A stretch of 64,000 nucleotides of DNA, taken from assembly GCA_964016885.1 (NCBI GenBank), contig OZ024742.1:352966001-353030000 (forward strand), given 5' to 3'. The position numbers and the translations under genes were made by a program. Origin of the DNA: Eledone cirrhosa (Eukaryota). Below the pieces are notes generated by a model, which was given only the letters and a program-made list of their open reading frames with translations, was not told the origin of the DNA and searched no databases. This document shows, one piece after another, positions 23,515-44,749 of this stretch. The number at the start of each line of letters is the position of its first letter. Within the stretch, counting starts at the first letter, position 1.

Positions 23515-24552
23515 ATTTAATCTGTTATCTTAATAAATATTTGCTTTCGGGATCTTATATATTTGATATATATTTATCCTTATCGAGCCCTCTTTGGATT
23601 TTAGTCTTCAAATTTATTATTATTACTATTTGGCTCCCTCAGTTGAGCACTCTATTGACTTATATTCATCATGCAGAAACAACATCTGAATTTTTCTACA
23701 AAGAACATACCCGTACCAAGCACGAAGACATACCTATAACTCCTGATACAGAGAGCGGACTCGTTCCTTAAAAGGTTGCGTTGGCGTGCCTTTTATTTCG
23801 ATAATCAGGGAAAAGCGGACACGAAACAGGATAAATTTGTGTTTAGAACTCATAATAACTCTCCGAGTAAACCAGCATTGATACCCTTCGAAAACGATGT
23901 CTTGAAACTCACACGGAGTATCAAATTTCGGAATAGGAGCAATTCCTTCTAGCAGGACCCGAAGAATAGAATTCGTGTTATTAAGGATTATAACGGCGTG
24001 CACGTCTACTCCGACAAAACTGGTAATATATATCAAGTGGAGCTCATTACTCACCATTAACTGCAACATAATGCTGTAACTAAGGATTAACGTAAAAGAA
24101 AGAAAATTCAGCGACAGTGGTGAATGTACGGAATTATAGTGATGTAATAGTATGGAAAATACCAACACGCAACAAAGTATCAGAAGCAGTCAAGAATATC
24201 AGGCATCGCAATCCCAATAATTTTCTTCAACCATTATCTATACTATAAAGCTGACGGCCCTATGTAAGTAACACACTTTTATCCAAGCGGCTGGACAAAA
24301 CGGCACCAAATTTTCACCATAGATGTAACTTTTTTTCGAGTAACAAATTCTTCGTATTTTCATCCACTGAATTTTGTTAAAGGATTAAAGACATTATTTA
24401 AATATTCACTTCTTTAAATTTTTCAATTGTCAACATTTCCGGTTATACGACATTCCTAACGTCTTCACGAACCAAAGTATCATATTCCTGTTTTCTTTCG
24501 GTTGCAAAGTTTTTGGAAATATGTACTTCTGTGTTCACAAATGGATTTTTTT

Positions 24553-30217: not shown

Positions 30218-30272
<55 letters not shown>

Positions 30273-30417
30273 ACGAAGGAATTGTGGTAAGGAGCCAGAT
30301 GGACCATAACGCACCAGAGTACTCAATACTTAGGGTAGTAGAGTAGGTAATCGGAAAAAGTATGACCCAGACGGCAGAGCTCAAGCCGTTTCGACGGCTA
30401 CTTATGGGCCACAATAG

Positions 30418-30798
30418 AATTTTTAGCCTGCTAAATAAATAGCCGAACTTGTCAAGGGGTACTTCCTTATATGGGAAGATAGTAGTTGTGGAGAAGATTG
30501 GTCAACATTTGTTGTAAATACAAATGAGTCTATCATGGCATTTGGTGGGGGGTAGGTGTGGCTGACCTTGCCTGTAGAACAATGAAGGATCAAGCGTTGA
30601 AGCTGCAATCTACTTTCAACGCTTGAAAGGCACCACTCACTCCCTCATTGTTCTACAGGCAAGTTCAGCCACCCCTACCTGCCACCAAGTGCCATGATAG
30701 ACTTATTTGAGATTACAATTATCTCGACAAATACAATCTTCCCATATAAAGAAGTACCCCTTAACAATTTCGGCTATTTATTTACCAGGCTAAGAATT
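30418..30798. repeat. Imperfect fold-back inverted repeat (~170-bp arms) with internal hairpin
   Basis: ttagcctgctaaataaatagccg...gcctgtagaacaatga versus tcattgttctacaggc...cggctatttatttaccaggctaa. Internal tcaagcgttgaa/ttcaacgcttga at ~30590-30626. Confidence 0.8.
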
Positions 30799-30799
30799 A

Positions 30800-31686
30800 T
30801 AGGAGCAAATTTTGGAATAGAATAGAAAGAACTAGGAACAAGGCTAATAGAATAAACTCATGGTACGATAGCAATAAATACCAGAGTGTAATGTTCATCG
30901 ATACAACCCCTAGAGGTGAATTAGCTTACAAATTTAGAAGGGCCCTAAATAAACATAAACTCAATATTAAGATATTAGAAAGACCAGGTACCTCCGTAAA
31001 CACACTTATTAGCAATACATACCCTTTTCAAAGACCCTCATGTATAGATAAAAAATGTATAACCTGTAAAATAAGCCCCCATATTAACTGTAAAACTAGA
31101 AATGTAGTGTATAGCATAAGATGTACTGAAGGACAATGTAGAGATAAAAATATAGTGTACATAGGTGAGACAGCTCGTAGTGTAGGGGGACGGATAAATG
31201 AACACTGGCGAGACCTTCAAGATAGTAAAGAACCATCTGTACTCTACCAACATGCTAAAATAGAACACAAGGGTAAATTAGAGAACATAGAAATAAAAAT
31301 AGAATCTACACAAAGAAAAGACGCAATGTTTAGACAAATTACTGAGGCAATAAACATAAAAGAATTACAACCAAAATTAAATAGAAAATATAAGTGGAAC
31401 AGCAACATCACAACTTACAATTAAGGACAAAATGAAAACACACACACACATAGAACAAACAACCAACCAGTAACATGTAAATAAACAAATACATAAATGA
31501 ACATAAACACACAGAGACACCCGGATATGGCCCATGCGCAGACTGAGCACACAACACACACACAGAAACAAAATGGCGTAGGACAGAACAAAGGAGAGGC
31601 ACAGAAACAAAGAAAGCAATCCCCAGTCACTGAATAGGTCACAGAGTCACCTATGGTGCGTGTGTTTCTTATTGGCAACATGAACC

Positions 31687-31690
<4 letters not shown>
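30800..31690 (+). mobile_element. 5'-truncated PLE: GIY-YIG ORF 30891-31424 plus deleted pLTR
   Basis: CITC...NCKTRNVVYSIRCTEGQC...VYIGETARSVGGRINEH...RQITEAINIKELQPKLN. Confidence 0.9.
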
Positions 31691-31762
<72 letters not shown>

Positions 31763-34560
31763 TTGGGGAGGGTCATATGTGTGTAATATTGCCAGAATTA
31801 ATAACAGAACACACTCACTGTTTGGTTGGTTTTCGCTTCTGTGTCTTTTATATCGGTTAATTTAATTTATTCGGTCCTCAATGTTGTCATTGACTGACCA
31901 ACGGTCAAAAATACAGATACAATATAGACACAGACACATATATATCATTTATCAAAGTTCTTTCGTTGCACATCTGCAACAGCTTCAGTGGTGTTATTGT
32001 TTCCTCCCGTTGCATTGTATTTTCTATGCCATTTTATTTAGTCTGTTTATATATTTATTTATTTGTTTATATATTTATGTTTTTGTCTTCTTTGCTCATG
32101 CATTTGCGTGTGTGTATAGTGTTTTGTTTGATGTGTGTTCGTGATTGGGTGACTGTGTATTGGTTAATGTATTCTATCTTTACTATTGTGTGTTTATATG
32201 TGTTTGTTGTTATTGTGCTTGTGTATGTATTTATTTATTTATCTATTTATTTATTTATTTATGCTTCTCTTAGGTCAGTGTTGTTTGATTAAGTGTTGTT
32301 ATTCCATTTATTTTTTATGTTTAGCCTTGGCCTTCTAAGTTCTGTTTCACTGGCCTCTCTGATTTGCCTATCTGCTGGGTCATTTCTATGTGTAGATATT
32401 ATTCTAATTTCTATGTTGTCTATATTACCGTCGTGTTGTTGTCTGGCATGTTCTTGAGTACTGAACCGTTTTTTCGTCATTTTAGTTCTCCCCAGTGTTG
32501 GTCTATCCTTTCACCTATGCTACGAGCTGTGTCGCCTATGTATGTTGTTCTCATGTTTCTGCAAGTACCCTCTTTACATCTTATGCTATAGACTACGTTT
32601 CTAGTTTTACAGTTTATCCGGGGGTTTACCTTATATATGATACATTTCCTATTAATACAGTGGGTTTTCTTAAAAGGGTAGGTTTTGCTGATCAGGGATG
32701 TTATGGTGGTTCCTGGCGTTTCTCCACCTTAATCTTTAAGTGGGGTTTTCTCAGGGTCTTTCTACACTGGTTAGCTAATTTCCCTCCATGGGTAGCGTCC
32801 ATAAACATGACACTCTGATATCTCTGGTTGTTGTACCATAAGGTGGCTTTCCTTATCTTATGTCTAGCCCTATCTAAGCTATTCCATGATTTGCTCCTGT
32901 ATAATTGGCAAATTCCTTTCATATCCAGTTCTATGAGGGTCTTATACTTCTCCGTGGCTCCTTCGTATACTCTGGTGCTGTCTCTTTGCTTGTAGCCAGA
33001 AAACTGCATGCGGTTGATGAATTGTTGCATGTTTCTTTCCATTTCTGTTGGGACGCACATGCGGGACACGTTCTTCACCAATCGTACCAAGTCTGCGATC
33101 AGAATATTAAACTTAGCACTACTGGACATTGATGAGTTTTTGAGTATCAATTATTTGGAGGCCATGGGTTTAGCATAGTGTGAGTGGAGAATTTGGGCTC
33201 TCTCGTCTAGAGTGTTAATACAGAGTTCCTTGTCTAATACAGGTGGTCTATTGTTAGGGTGTTTGGAAGGGTAGTCGATAGTTACAGTTATTCTCTGGTG
33301 TATGGAATTAGCTATCTGCTGGATGCTTTCCATTGTGCTACGTTCCAAATCAAACTTGTTAGTGCTCTCTAGTGGAGATGTTCTCATAACTATATTGATA
33401 TCTTCTACGTAACGAGAGTACATGATGATGTCTATGGAGCTCTCATTAGGGAGATCTTTAAGTCTCCTTTCCCACCATACCATAAAAAGGTTGGCAACAT
33501 CACCGGCTATGCTGACGCCAATGGCTGCTCCCTCATTTTGGGTGTAGATCTTCTCGTTGAACTTGAATATGTGGCCCTTTAGGGTAGTTTTGATACTAGC
33601 CCCTATTGCATGTGCGACCATTTTTCTTACCTAATCATTGTTTTGGGAGGTCCGTATAGCTTTGGTCCACCCAATTCACCTTCCCATGGGAGTATTTTTA
33701 GCCATTGATGTTATGGTGGGAGATCTACCTCTTATGGGTCTACTGGTGCAGAAACGTCTAAGTCCATGCCTGTCTAGGTAGTCAGTGTCGTAGGCAAGTC
33801 TAAGTAGGAGGCCCAGTTCTTCTGTGTCGACGTCGCAGAACTCCACCTCTATCTCAATGATCATCTCCACACACGTTTCGACCACAAAATCAATGTTAAT
33901 GGATGGGTACAATGATACCACTCCATGCTGCCTATTATGCAGTTGGCTAGGTTCATGTTTTTGTTGCACCCACTGATTCTGCTGAGGAGGTCATCCGTAC
34001 TGTCACATACATCTGGGAACATCTTGATTATGCGGCGTATAACCATTGAAAGAAAGTAGGAGATCCTGTAGTTGCTAGCTATATTTGCTCCGCACACTGG
34101 TTTTGTTGGTGGTCTTGTTGTCGGGTCGTCGACTGTCTTGTGGTCATTGCAAAGCCCATACAAGGGTGGTATGCCATTTTTAGACGCCTGGAAGTTGGTG
34201 GCAGTGCGTCTGCTTGGCTTTAGGATGTCGGTCCACATCATCATGTGAGCGTTGATGATTTTTTCTCTCCCATCATGTATTTGCTGTGCAATTTCGCTCG
34301 TGTTTGTGATGTGGAGTTGTATAGCCTTGATGTAGTTCGGCAAGCTGTCTATTGACATCCTACCAGACTTATCCGTTGGTAGACATACTACCTCACCATC
34401 CCTTGTCCGCTGCTAACCAAACCTTCTACAGCCTTCCTCGCAACAGTGAGTGTGTTCTGTTATTAATTCTGGCAATATTACACAAATATGACGCTCTCAA
34501 GAATAACACATGTTTCGACACACGATTTCATATAAAAAACCTCGCAAAACTAATTCATCG
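31763..34560 (-). mobile_element. Degenerate PLE: RT ~33151-34360, linker, GIY-YIG ~32289-32700, pLTR 31763-32288, inverted pLTR piece ~34442-34560
   Basis: PPLYGLCNDHK...PTKPVCGA; VVSLYPSI; FKFNEKIYTQNEGAAIGVSIAGDVANLFM; YSRYVEDI; YIGDTARS. 34442-34500 is the reverse complement of 31763-31822. Confidence 0.9.
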
Positions 34561-38117: not shown

Positions 38118-39255
38118 TCGAACACTCCACACTCAACACCACTCAAACACTCCACACTCAGCACCAATCGAACACTCCACACTCAGCACCAATCGAACAC
38201 TCCACTCTCAGCACCAATCGAACACTCCACACTCAACACCAATCGAACACTCCACACTCAGCACCAATCTAACACTCCACTCTCAGCACCAATCGAACAC
38301 TCCACATCAGCACCAATCGAACACTCCACACTCAGCACCAATCGAACACTCCACACTCAGCACCCATCGAACACTCCACACTCAGCACCAATCGAATACT
38401 CCACACTCAGAACCACTCGAACACTCCACACTCAGCACCAATCGAACACTCCACACTCAGCACCACTCGAACACTCCACACTCAGCACCAATCGAACACT
38501 CCACACTCAACACCACTCAAACACTCCACACTCAGCACCAATCGAACACTCCGCACTCAGCACCCATCGAACACTCCACACTCAATACCACTCAAACACT
38601 CCACATTCAGCACCAATCGAACACTCCACACTCAGCACCAATCGAACACTCGACACTCAACACCACTCACACACTCCACACTCAGCACCAATCGAACACT
38701 CCACGCTCAGCACCAATCGAACACTCCACACTCAGAACCACTCGAACACTCCACACTCAGCACCAATCGAACACTCCACACTCAGAACTACTCGAACACT
38801 CCACACTCAGAACCACTCGAACACTCCACACTCAGCACCAATCGAACACTCCACACTCAGCACCAATCGAACACTCCACACTCAGAACCACTCGAACACT
38901 CCACACTCAGAACCACTCGAACACTCCACACTCAGCACCAATCGAACACTCCACACTCAGCACCAATCGAACACTCCACACTCAACACCACTCAAACACT
39001 CCACACTCAGCACCAATCGAACACTCCCCACTCAGTACCATTCGAACACTCCACACTCAGCACCACTCGAATACTACATACTCAGCACCACTCGAATACT
39101 GCATACTCAGCACCACTCGAACACTCCACGCTCAACCCCACTCGAACACTCTACACTCAGCCCCACTCGAACACTCCACACTCAGCACCACTCGAACACT
39201 CCACGCTGAGCACCACTCGAACACTCCACGCTGAGCACCACTCGAACACTCCACA
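38118..39255 (+). repeat. Minisatellite, 25-bp unit (a/c)tcgaacactccacactcagcacca, ~45 copies
   Basis: Direct reading; period 25 (e.g. 38341, 38366, 38391). No unique spacers. Confidence 0.95.
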
Positions 39256-39805: not shown

Positions 39806-40775
<970 letters not shown>

Positions 40776-40869
40776 AACGAGTTATTTGGTTTGTTGATTA
40801 TTCAACAAAGTAAATTTACAACAAATTAGAAGCACTCAACGAGGTGTTTATCCAGAGTATCATTAATAT

Positions 40870-41030
40870 AAATAATATTAATAAACGGAAAATATCTTTA
40901 TAAAACCATTTTTATTTTATTATACACATTTCAAGGGTACCCTATTTTAGTACGCTTTCGTCAGATAAAATAGAATAATTGGTGTAAAGATAGTGACATA
41001 TCTTCATATGAACTTCATGTTATGTGTTCA
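40870..41030. repeat. Dispersed repeat, second copy at ~9885-10047
   Basis: Shared ttttattatac..atttcaagggta...tacgctttcgt.agataaa...gtaaagatagtga.atatcttcat. Confidence 0.75.
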
Positions 41031-41155
41031 TTGAATATATATATATATATAAACATAGCCCTGGGTGTATATATATATATGTGTATGTTTGTGTGTGTAA
41101 CTGTATATGCGTGTGTGCGTGTGTTTGCGTGTGCGGGTGTGTGTGTGATGTGTGT

Positions 41156-41373: not shown

Positions 41374-41752
41374 ATTATTTCTTCAAGACAATTTCATTTT
41401 AGAATTGCTATAACTGAATATATTTATTATCACTAAATATACGATAAATATTACACTGACATATTTCGAATAAGTTATACCTCTTCTCCCTATTTTACAA
41501 CTGAATTTCTAAGACAATATAACATGTCAGATTACTAATGTGCTTCATTAATATATGTCTATAGTATCACAACAAATACATTGTTATCCGTCCCTTTAAT
41601 TTGTTTTCTGTTATTCATTATAGTAATACATTTGCATTATTTACCACCAAACCTTAATGCATACCATTAAAATTATTTAGTAGATATAATCGTTCGAACT
41701 ACTGATATAAAACAACGTTCTGTCGTTTGATGATGTCTACATATATATGTTT

Positions 41753-42359
41753 GTTTTTCTTTTTGTTCAGTTATACTATACGGCCTGGAAAAACCTTTTT
41801 CCTGGAGCTAATTTTACTGTAATGAGAGTATTTGAGTTTCTAACTCAATACATGCTTTTGATACATTCGGCTCCGTTAATTCGTAGAGCTATTTCAATTG
41901 TCGTGTAGACCCGGCTGCTATTTTTAGTGACGTGAGTCTGTGCGACGCGCTAAGTTTGGGACCGTGTGCGTTACATATACACACACTATCCAGTTCTTTA
42001 TTTTATGTAGAAGTGATAAGGATACTAATTCCTCACCCGCTGATGAGCCAACAATTTGATATACCTCTTCACAAATAATATTGCGAAACGGTTCCATCAA
42101 AAACCGTCCGGGTGAATGGTAGTTACCACAATACTGGTTTGTATTTATGTTCTTGATTTATTCTTAAATTGAGTCTAGCAAACGCTATTGTCTATAGTTA
42201 GTATTTGTTTTACCATTTGAACGCATATATGCATATGTCTGTGTTCGTTTTTCTTTTTGTTCAGTAATACTATACGGCTCAGAAAAAACTTTTTTTCTGG
42301 AGCTAATTTTACTGTAATGAGACTATTTTGAGTTTCTAACTCAATACATACTTTTGATA
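41753..42359 (+). mobile_element. Non-coding HHR-bearing element with ~111-bp terminal direct repeats (period 494 bp), retrozyme-like
   Basis: 41753-41863 matches 42247-42359. Canonical HHR in between; no ORF. Confidence 0.65.
42033..42115 (+). ncRNA. Type I hammerhead ribozyme, fully canonical core
   Basis: tcacccg-CTGATGA-gc...gc-GAAA-cggtt-ccatcaaa-aaccg-TC-cgggtga. 7-bp stem I, closed stem III hairpin, GUC site with predicted cleavage after 42108. Confidence 0.88.
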
Positions 42360-44749
42360 TATATTAACATATATGAAATTAATGATAGAGCTGTTTCTTA
42401 TAAACTTATCATCCTGAAATTAAAAAAATGTTTGCGTTTTTACGCTTTATGTTGTATCACAGCAATGTTGGAATTTGTATATATCTATAGAGATGTTACT
42501 GAAAATATTCAGTTTTATAGAAAACTTTACAATTCAACACATTCAATGAATGAGATCAAATTATCGATTAACTCTATAGAATTGGCACGGTTTGACCCAC
42601 ATCGATCGAAATATGTTTTAATTTGTTTCATTTGTTTTGGAGCTGAGAAACAATTGATATCTTGAAATATTGCATCGCAGTGTTACTTGTGCCTCGTTAA
42701 GCAATATTAAAAATATAAAAATAGGGCATACACCCTATAGCAACCTCTATAATAGACTACAGAAATCAGAATCCAGAAGGAAAATGGACGATTGACTCCG
42801 CTTTAGATTTATTATATCAATGGATTAACCACATGCACAAGCTGCCATTGATTATAGGTCGATTTCTTCTTCTATTCGTACCTCTATTTAATAATACTTA
42901 TTTTCTTTCAAAGACGATATCTCATAAAATCTCAAATAAAGGACATGGTTTATAATTTAGGAAAACCTATTACTATGCTACCGTATACATAAATATCAGG
43001 TTCGGTGAATATAATGTTGGGATTGTAGGATCATGACAAAGGGCGATGCTACTGTATTGCAATTTTGCACAAATAAATTATTTGTCAATAAGTAATATGA
43101 CATCAATGAAATGTTATTGCAATTAGCGTCATGACATCATTTCCTCGTTGATATTTGAACCTAATAAAGGGTCTCACGACATCTGAACAAATTATAAAAT
43201 ATATTTTTATCATAGATTTCAACAGAATAAAATTACTAAAAATAAAAATAAGATGTTCACGTAATTGCTTGTGAAGAATATATTAACATACAAACTGCAT
43301 ACGTTCAAATCAACTTGGAATATCCAGTGATAATATAATGTTTATGGAACATTACATCTCTTATTTCACTAACATAATACTACAGCGAGATGACTTCTTC
43401 TTCATGCACTTATTCCTCAGAGAGCCGTGGAAGCAGGTGTCCCCACTCACTCATTTCAGGGAGTGTTCTCAGTAGCACCATATTACAATTGATCGGGTTG
43501 GATCCTCAAGCGAAACAAGCCAAATTCTTGGATGTTATCCAACCATTTTGCACGGGGTGTAACTTTGGGTCTCCTGGTTGTTTGTATTCTCTAACATCTG
43601 TCCACAGGTTATTTCCTGCGCCATTCAAACCACATAGACATAGTACTGAAGCGGTGATCACTCTATTAGTAGAAGTAGTGTTCTTATTTCGATGGAGTCT
43701 CTGATCTCTGTGCATCACACTCTATTCAGTAACATGACTCCAAAGAGCCAACAACCTAACCCTATGCCGGCCGCCTATATTCACGATCGTATTAATCATT
43801 ACTCAGGATTCATGTATGTAAGTAAGATGCATTACAATGGAAATTGTATATCTATGTTTTAAAGATAACTGGTTGTAATCTAAAGATGTAATGGCCTAAC
43901 CGCGTCAGGAGCTTTGTCGAATATGTAGGGAGGAAACTTCCATGGCTCATTGTACCGTTTGTATACTTTACTCAGAACTAACGGCGTCGAGTAGCACACA
44001 CCCTGGAATGAGCTCCAACATTTGTACTGGCTATTTCAACGCCTCTCCCTCACCATCAAATGGGTTTAATAGATTCTCCATTCTAGCTGCTATAACAATA
44101 TGTATGCTAACAACTGTATAAGTGTATGTCAGAAAACGCTCCACGATTCGGCCCTCATGTGCATCATTCAGGTAGCCATATTTGAATACATTTGTATCCA
44201 GAAATGGGCGCGTGGTGGTTTGCTGATTGATAAGTATCATTTTGTATTGTTTCTATTATATTCCAAGGGATTTTTATTTTATTTCAAATAAATCATCAGT
44301 TGGCATTGAATTCCACAAACGGTTATCACCTCAACTGTAAAACACGTAAAATATATCAAATCATTAAGAATATTAGTAAAGAAAATACATAAATTTATTG
44401 ACGAAATTGCAGAACATTAGCCACATACTCCCACACAACGAACTTTCGTCTACTATCTAAGTCATTAACATACTCTTACATTGGAGGATACACGCATACG
44501 CATGTGTATGTATGTATATTTGTGAGTACAAATATATGTGTATGGTTACAATATCAACATGTGTATTTTTATATTTTACTGTGTGTGGGCTATCTTAGGA
44601 GCGTGTATGTGTGTATTCCCCTCCATATATGGACTGTTATAGTCGTGTTCCATAGCTGTCATATCAGAATTCTTTGATCAACGCACACACACACACACAC
44701 ACACATAGAAACAATCACACATACACACACACACACACACATATGACAA

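Follow-up and report, generated by a model that had tools for sequence, protein, structure and literature searches.

Layout of the insertion and of its family

The window analysed here, a 64-kb stretch of the Eledone cirrhosa genome, carries on its + strand a truncated, ORF-less, hammerhead-bearing element (41748..42362, the 5' edge lying possibly as far as 41739), one of hundreds of dispersed copies. It is a 5'-truncated partial tandem of about 1.2 monomers belonging to subfamily U1. From 5' to 3', all on the + strand, it comprises: the 3' end of a preceding monomer (41748..41780), which stops at fixed end 1, the pLTR end; a first copy of an 86-nt tail (41781..41866), which starts with a bulged hairpin (hairpin 1) that is mutated in this copy; hairpin 2 (GCTCC-N-GTAGAGC, 41870..41889), located directly 3' of fixed end 2 and common to Hydra-clade PLEs; a type I hammerhead ribozyme motif (42033..42115, predicted cleavage after 42108); the site of a 22-nt deletion (42214..42215), present only in this copy among the aligned copies spanning the site; the end of the full monomer, which is the second copy of fixed end 1 (42242..42274); and a second tail (42275..42362), which stops at fixed end 2 and is followed by a short AT tract. 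The insertion terminates just 5' of where hairpin 2 would follow this second tail. The window copy is an arm that ends in the tail and whose 5' truncation falls about 33 nt inside the preceding monomer; the inverted arm is absent from it. No target-site duplication could be called within the TA tracts, and no convincing match to Pol III boxes A and B was seen by eye.

The direct repeats described in the first-pass annotation as spanning about 111 bp are real but slightly longer, about 120 bp: 41748-41866 and 42242-42362 align over 121 columns with 91% identity and a period of 494-496. The unit is non-coding, as had been claimed (longest stop-free stretch of 77 aa; GC 35%). Its proposed length of 494 bp does not hold for the family, whose monomer measures 515-530 nt (GC 32-37%); the figure is explained by the 22-nt deletion, and a 494-nt family monomer was rejected, the 22 nt being present in the other aligned copies that span the site. 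Apparent breakpoints at query position 475/476 were traced to the same deletion. A circle derived from the family would likewise measure 515-530 nt, rather than the ~494 nt that had been predicted. Thirteen complete monomers ranged from 495 to 531 nt, 12 of them within 508-531 nt, and had a longest ATG frame of 26-84 aa when read as circles.

At least 75 family matches were obtained in the species' own genome (3.0 Gb) from 40 scored of 3083 first-look candidates, candidates not being equal to copy numbers; patterns for the hairpin-2 region matched 138 (U1) and 223 (U3) sites genome-wide, with 0 control matches. Three subfamilies were distinguished, with 67-95% identity overall: U1, which includes the window copy (L001, ~90% identical to the family yardstick) and whose copies are 87-95% identical; U2, 77-81% identical to U1; and U3, 67-73% identical to the others. 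The genome-wide check for copies free of RT/GIY-YIG that had been suggested returned dispersed partial tandems: among the sampled U1, U2 and U3 loci, none had an ORF with RT and GIY-YIG joined to the pLTR in a fixed phase, and the attachment to a PLE ORF expected of an ordinary solo pLTR was absent from every copy examined. Contigs of three runs (one sample, run type unrecorded) cover the unit, and the loose contig ends listed for these runs are (TA)n or subfamily variants.

The window copy is probably inert and a dead end, since it has one hammerhead, the deletion and a damaged hairpin 1; a single hammerhead allows no monomer release by double cleavage, and the copy counts as a monomer derivative. 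Candidate sources lie elsewhere, for example at L011, L013 and L025.

At the family level, the features of non-LTR retrozymes are present as judged from sequence, and the unit appears to represent a new family of these elements with an unusually readable mobilisation signal. The link to retrozymes and PLEs that had been proposed is borne out by a non-coding, hammerhead-bearing unit with a PLE insertion footprint across copies. According to the available text of Cervera and de la Pena 2020 (PMC7229834), the metazoan non-LTR retrozymes of coral, mussel and axolotl are likewise short and non-coding, with a type I hammerhead, GC under 45%, a structured monomer, head-to-tail repeats and PLEs in the same genome. 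The unit differs from them in size (about 520 nt vs. ~170-400 nt for invertebrate retrozymes) and in the arrangement of its copies: dispersed partial tandems and head-to-head arms, against dimers to 62-mers. For the published retrozymes, cleavage and circles were demonstrated and a PLE partner was suggested; for the unit, cleavage is predicted and a circle proposed. Vertebrate retrozymes, as described in a preprint arguing for a PLE origin of animal retrozymes (Li, Clavereau, Pollet, bioRxiv 10.64898/2026.07.22.740005), are similarly non-autonomous and PLE-dependent, with many monomer derivatives, and the unit falls within their size range of 51-972 bp. Non-autonomous Chlamys elements such as MRC1 are also ORF-less PLE dependants with pLTRs and head-to-tail copies; their 3' ends generally look like those of autonomous families, and hammerheads are missing from most Chlamys elements (PMC8557442). 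In the literature covered by the search, in which subscription journals were sparsely represented and which did not extend to Repbase and Dfam, neither a cephalopod retrozyme nor a text describing this hairpin came up.

The hammerhead motif

The complete type I hammerhead reported at 42033-42115 was recovered at exactly those positions, with its 7-bp stem I, CTGATGA, GAAA, closed stem III (5 bp plus A-U) and GTC with the C at 42108. It is the sole strict match in the 64-kb window. A chance origin was ruled out by block-wise dinucleotide shuffles of the window, 0 of 100 of which contained a strict hammerhead. The suggested comparison with the Rfam hammerhead models, run on 701 bases, gave a match to HH9, but below threshold (15.6 bits vs. 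a gathering score of 52, E 0.84); a scan of the whole window reported no hammerhead.

Stem II of the window hammerhead has just 2 closing pairs. The predicted energy of the hammerhead fold in this copy was -20.8 kcal/mol against a minimum of -25.5 kcal/mol (4.7 above), with an ensemble penalty of 5.6 kcal/mol; the predicted ensemble-energy cost in four copies was 3.5-7.4 kcal/mol, and stem II was not selected in the RNAalifold consensus. Stem III makes folding as a monomer, which the first-pass annotation had anticipated, plausible, but a different fold is predicted to have the lowest energy.

In an alignment of 37 copies, which were chosen for an intact core and are mutually related, so that counts are inflated by relatedness and a shuffle count on them is no probability, 90.9% of cells were paired and two-sided changes occurred at 5 pairs, among them G-C pairs replaced by A-U in stems I and III. 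Minor letters numbered 46 of 965 in the core and 5058 of 49797 elsewhere, counted with no selection on the core. In U3, stem I has a different 8-bp sequence and pairing is retained. On the evidence of these alignments, the hammerhead is under compensatory selection, with stems I and III maintained. Covariation was slight across the whole monomer (7 of 121 pairs, term -0.05), and slight also outside the ribozyme and the local hairpins; circular-fold z values of the monomer were -3.1 to -4.1 (25 shuffles each).

The combination of a stable stem III and a weak stem II is unlike that of the retrozymes in the available text of PMC7229834. Most metazoan PLE hammerheads are described as minimal and dimeric (PMC4209133), and the stable stem III sets the unit apart from these, though some Hydra families in this genome have one by eye. 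Visual inspection of the autonomous families C and F showed hammerhead-like motifs with a paired stem III; the descriptor did not accept them, and no conclusion is drawn from them. At the terminus of family C (window 30272-30797 and L159:1633-1730), U3-A8 replaces C3-G8 in the core of a hammerhead-like motif with a paired stem III (by eye; descriptor negative).

Two fixed ends and the candidate partner

Arm ends were compiled for U1 and U2 from 149 distinct arms in 120 partly overlapping loci, after de-duplication and exclusion of arms cut by a locus edge. There are two fixed 3' ends, 86 nt apart, the pLTR end and the tail end: 57 of the 149 arms stopped at fixed end 1, 75 at fixed end 2 and 17 elsewhere, and 119 of the 132 regular ends ran into (TA)4 or longer. 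For U3, 43 of 47 arms ended at the two fixed sites. Head-to-head pairs (n=51) had one end of each kind in 40 cases and the same end in none, the remaining 11 including an irregular end. A tail-to-tail palindromic U1 pair with duplicated flanks (L021/L022) lies inside a LINE-like RT fragment, and the usual fixed ends are missing from it.

These copies show traits of EN+ PLEs: a pLTR-forming partial tandem, an inverted truncated arm and a tail at one end; like Hydra, Neptune and Naiad, they also favour (TA)n targets. The same partial tandem, inverted 5'-truncated arm and one-end tail, with (TA)n targets and a hammerhead upstream of the two ends, are found in descriptions of EN+ PLEs, both of the Hydra clade (Craig et al. 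2021, PMC8557442) and of Poseidon PAc (Frangieh et al. 2024, PMC11167929). The Poseidon protein, when purified, cleaves AT-rich DNA on both strands and initiates reverse transcription at a pair of internal positions, which set the limits of the tail (PMC11167929). The unit differs from them in being without an RT or GIY-YIG ORF, in its tail (86 nt vs. 30-40 nt) and in its start-site hairpin, a bulged GCUC/GAGC stem as against the AC-rich stem-loop of PAc. The element is very probably non-autonomous and mobilised by a PLE. The terminal redundancy had been read as the trace of a circle copied beyond its origin. Its 3' edge is a fixed PLE-type end shared family-wide and its 5' edge is randomly truncated, so it consists of a PLE tail joined to a chance 5' break and is no proof of a circle.

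The unit might instead be the solo pLTR of an autonomous PLE outside the sample, since each DNA search scored 40 candidates and the sample comprised 70 Hydra-like loci in 7 families against about 10,500 candidates; Xenopus retrozymes are indeed often homologous to pLTRs (bioRxiv 10.64898/2026.07.22.740005). This is highly improbable. Forty-eight of the 149 arms read through the tail end, and the mapped ones continue into the same non-coding monomer in all three subfamilies, whereas in Hydra elements the ORF begins about 50-100 nt beyond the tail. No pLTR homology to an autonomous Hydra family was found in the 7 families of the 70 loci (0 of 7), and the family C loci were also negative; families A, B and C and the 7 Hydra families were rejected as parents, their termini having no homology to the unit. 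The similarity hits in the search of Hydra families for a parent were a separate U2 insertion (L236) and copies of an ORF-less family V (L232, L280). Ten PLE fragments compared with Pfam gave 0 family matches.

Each end of the unit starts at TA, with a bulged GCUC/GAGC hairpin following a few bases further on; hairpins 1 and 2 are retained in U1, U2 and U3. A strict hairpin motif was derived first from U, C and E and then tested on more families. Five of 7 Hydra-clade families have it immediately beyond the distal end (3 of 5 out of sample): E (in 8 of the 11 tested copies, of 35), C (3 of 4) and G (7 of 11), and also L263 and L277. It was missing from F (F758; 0 of 8 copies) and L262. The window contains two matches, one in a Hydra element at 23633 and one in the unit at 41870; 144,018 bases of Neptune-like loci contained none, and 14,000 shuffles gave 6. 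In the motif-bearing Hydra families, the (TA)n-bounded ends directly precede the motif. End-to-end distances in Hydra families were 80 (C), 93 (E) and 79 nt (F), and 171 (G) and 132 nt (L277), the last two from very few ends. An unbroken Hydra ORF of 794 aa (L255) has, by eye, the RWK, DKT and CxCX5C motifs that define the clade (PMC8557442) plus a GIY-YIG domain at its C-terminus.

Since the hairpin occurs in most of the Hydra-clade families (5 of 7) and in none of the Neptune-like loci, the mobilising partner is likely to be a Hydra-clade PLE, and hairpin 2 is a candidate RT recognition signal. The Hydra consensus preceding Hydra-1_Obim in the available part of the PMC8557442 supplement ends with a similar GCTC..TTGAGC bulged hairpin, and the signal may extend beyond this genome. 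In several Hydra-like families (G000, e.g. L253-L256), numerous copies agree exactly in open-frame length (713, 758 and 808 codons), which suggests recent activity.

The abundant Neptune-like families A and B, so labelled from a linker motif, also target (TA)n and could be the partner, the Hydra-like hairpin then being ancestral baggage. They had 37,139 and 9,613 first-look candidates, respectively, open frames of 1167 and 1216 aa, (TA)n ends and tails of about 60-65 nt by eye. Such a partner is nevertheless improbable: the unit has no similarity to A/B termini, the hairpin motif is lacking in 144,018 bases of A/B loci, both hairpins are retained in all three subfamilies, and the 86-nt tail is near those of the Hydra families C, E and F.

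Earlier support for a partnership between animal retrozymes and PLEs was, in the accessible texts, limited to co-occurrence and pLTR similarity (PMC7229834; bioRxiv 10.64898/2026.07.22.740005). For vertebrate retrozymes the link is co-occurrence and Xenopus pLTR homology; for the unit, which unlike the Xenopus retrozymes has no pLTR homology to the sampled autonomous families, it is the insertion footprint and a short common hairpin. A two-start-site footprint, a ~20-nt hairpin and unbroken Hydra ORFs in one genome bring partnership, signal and the requirement for a circle within reach of one common test.

The RNA template and related elements

The 5' ends of the arms were not enriched at the cleavage site (3 of 149 vs. 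3.4 expected), and a pile-up just past it was non-significant after counting arms at risk (25 in the following 40 nt vs. 18.1 expected, P 0.07). The lack of an excess at the cleavage site argues for an uncleaved or religated template, not a cut linear monomer. Two complete hammerheads were present in 3 of the 149 arms (L011, L013, L025) and two cleavage sites in 7; exact hammerhead matches numbered 10, including one dimer. Among the matches listed (100 of 138 for U1 and 100 of 223 for U3) there was no same-strand pair one monomer apart, and no trimer or longer, or long array, of this family was found among the matches listed.

A non-autonomous PLE could have been copied from linear, uncleaved tandem transcripts, the tandem being regenerated by strand transfer across the redundancy or from an unseen array, and the hammerhead only trimming. 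Unprocessed RNA was the dominant substrate of the anole PLE (PAc) in vitro, where cleavage was dispensable for insertion and no reads started or ended at the cut site in the published text available (PMC11167929); Xenopus retrozyme dimers were cleaved in 1 of 9 cases (bioRxiv 10.64898/2026.07.22.740005). Read-through of the cleavage site fits uncleaved RNA and a ligated circle equally, and the longest arms measure 921 nt (U1/U2) and 735 nt (U3), none exceeding two units. Such a linear template is, however, rather unlikely. Insertions stop before hairpin 2 and a daughter can be no longer than its linear parent, so tandems would shrink, yet full units persist at 67-81% subfamily identity and tandems must therefore be regenerated; the hammerhead appears to be under compensatory selection in a non-coding element; and the array is absent among the matches listed. 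On balance, the pattern of copies leads us to lean towards a circular RNA as template.

The locus holds one copy, shortened at its 5' side, of a dispersed element of ~520 nt. We consider it probable that this copy was inserted in trans by the RT/endonuclease of a Hydra-clade PLE, a circle probably having been copied. Rare two-hammerhead loci would be transcribed and their RNA cut twice, and the released monomer would be ligated into a circle. The PLE protein would bind the hairpins and nick both strands of a (TA)n tract, and reverse transcription would be initiated internally, once for each strand, at positions separated by 86 nt, giving head-to-head arms and the tail. Synthesis would pass the ligated junction and usually stop early, a rare long product creating a new two-hammerhead source locus.

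A wider reading, which we put forward tentatively, is that of a guild of circular-RNA retrozymes of ~520-540 nt (U1-U3, V and W), with no pLTR in common with autonomous elements, that recruit Hydra-clade PLE proteins via a tiny duplicated hairpin at each RT start. As insertions end just before the distal hairpin, only a hammerhead-made circle would supply a full unit upstream in such a guild. If true, this would explain the retention of hammerheads and of partial tandems in PLEs and their parasites.

Family V (L232:2262-3006; L280:4030-4900; also L171, L059 and L211) is ORF-less, with a period of about 537-541 nt and a layout as in U, to which it is about 70% similar in the post-tail region only. 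Family W lies 1.1 kb upstream of the unit, between microsatellites (window 39896-40665), as an ORF-less partial tandem with a period of about 533-543 nt. This copy has a + arm (39954-40665) and an inverted arm (39896-39957) in the two-end layout of the unit, a degenerate hammerhead around 40405-40487 whose stem III is palindromic (dimer-type), and a motif resembling hairpin 2. A relative of W (L293:5227-6628) is a single young insertion of about 2.65 head-to-tail units of 522 nt, 98-99% identical; both of its hammerhead cores are intact, and TA flanks it on either side. This insertion counts among the evidence for a circle, and L293 is the foremost candidate source locus for testing one.

Other PLE-related sequences occur in the window. 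Two abundant Neptune-like families, both with (TA)n at their ends, have left relics at 30765-31692 (+) and 31760-34550 (-); in copies elsewhere, the open frames measure 1167 and 1216 aa and contain long N-terminal inserts rich in Asn, and the hammerheads are minimal. A terminal remnant of another PLE family (40780-41040, -) contains a minimal hammerhead at 40913-40972, and a tandem array of 45.6 copies of a 25-nt unit (38118-39255) is located apparently within a PLE-like fragment.
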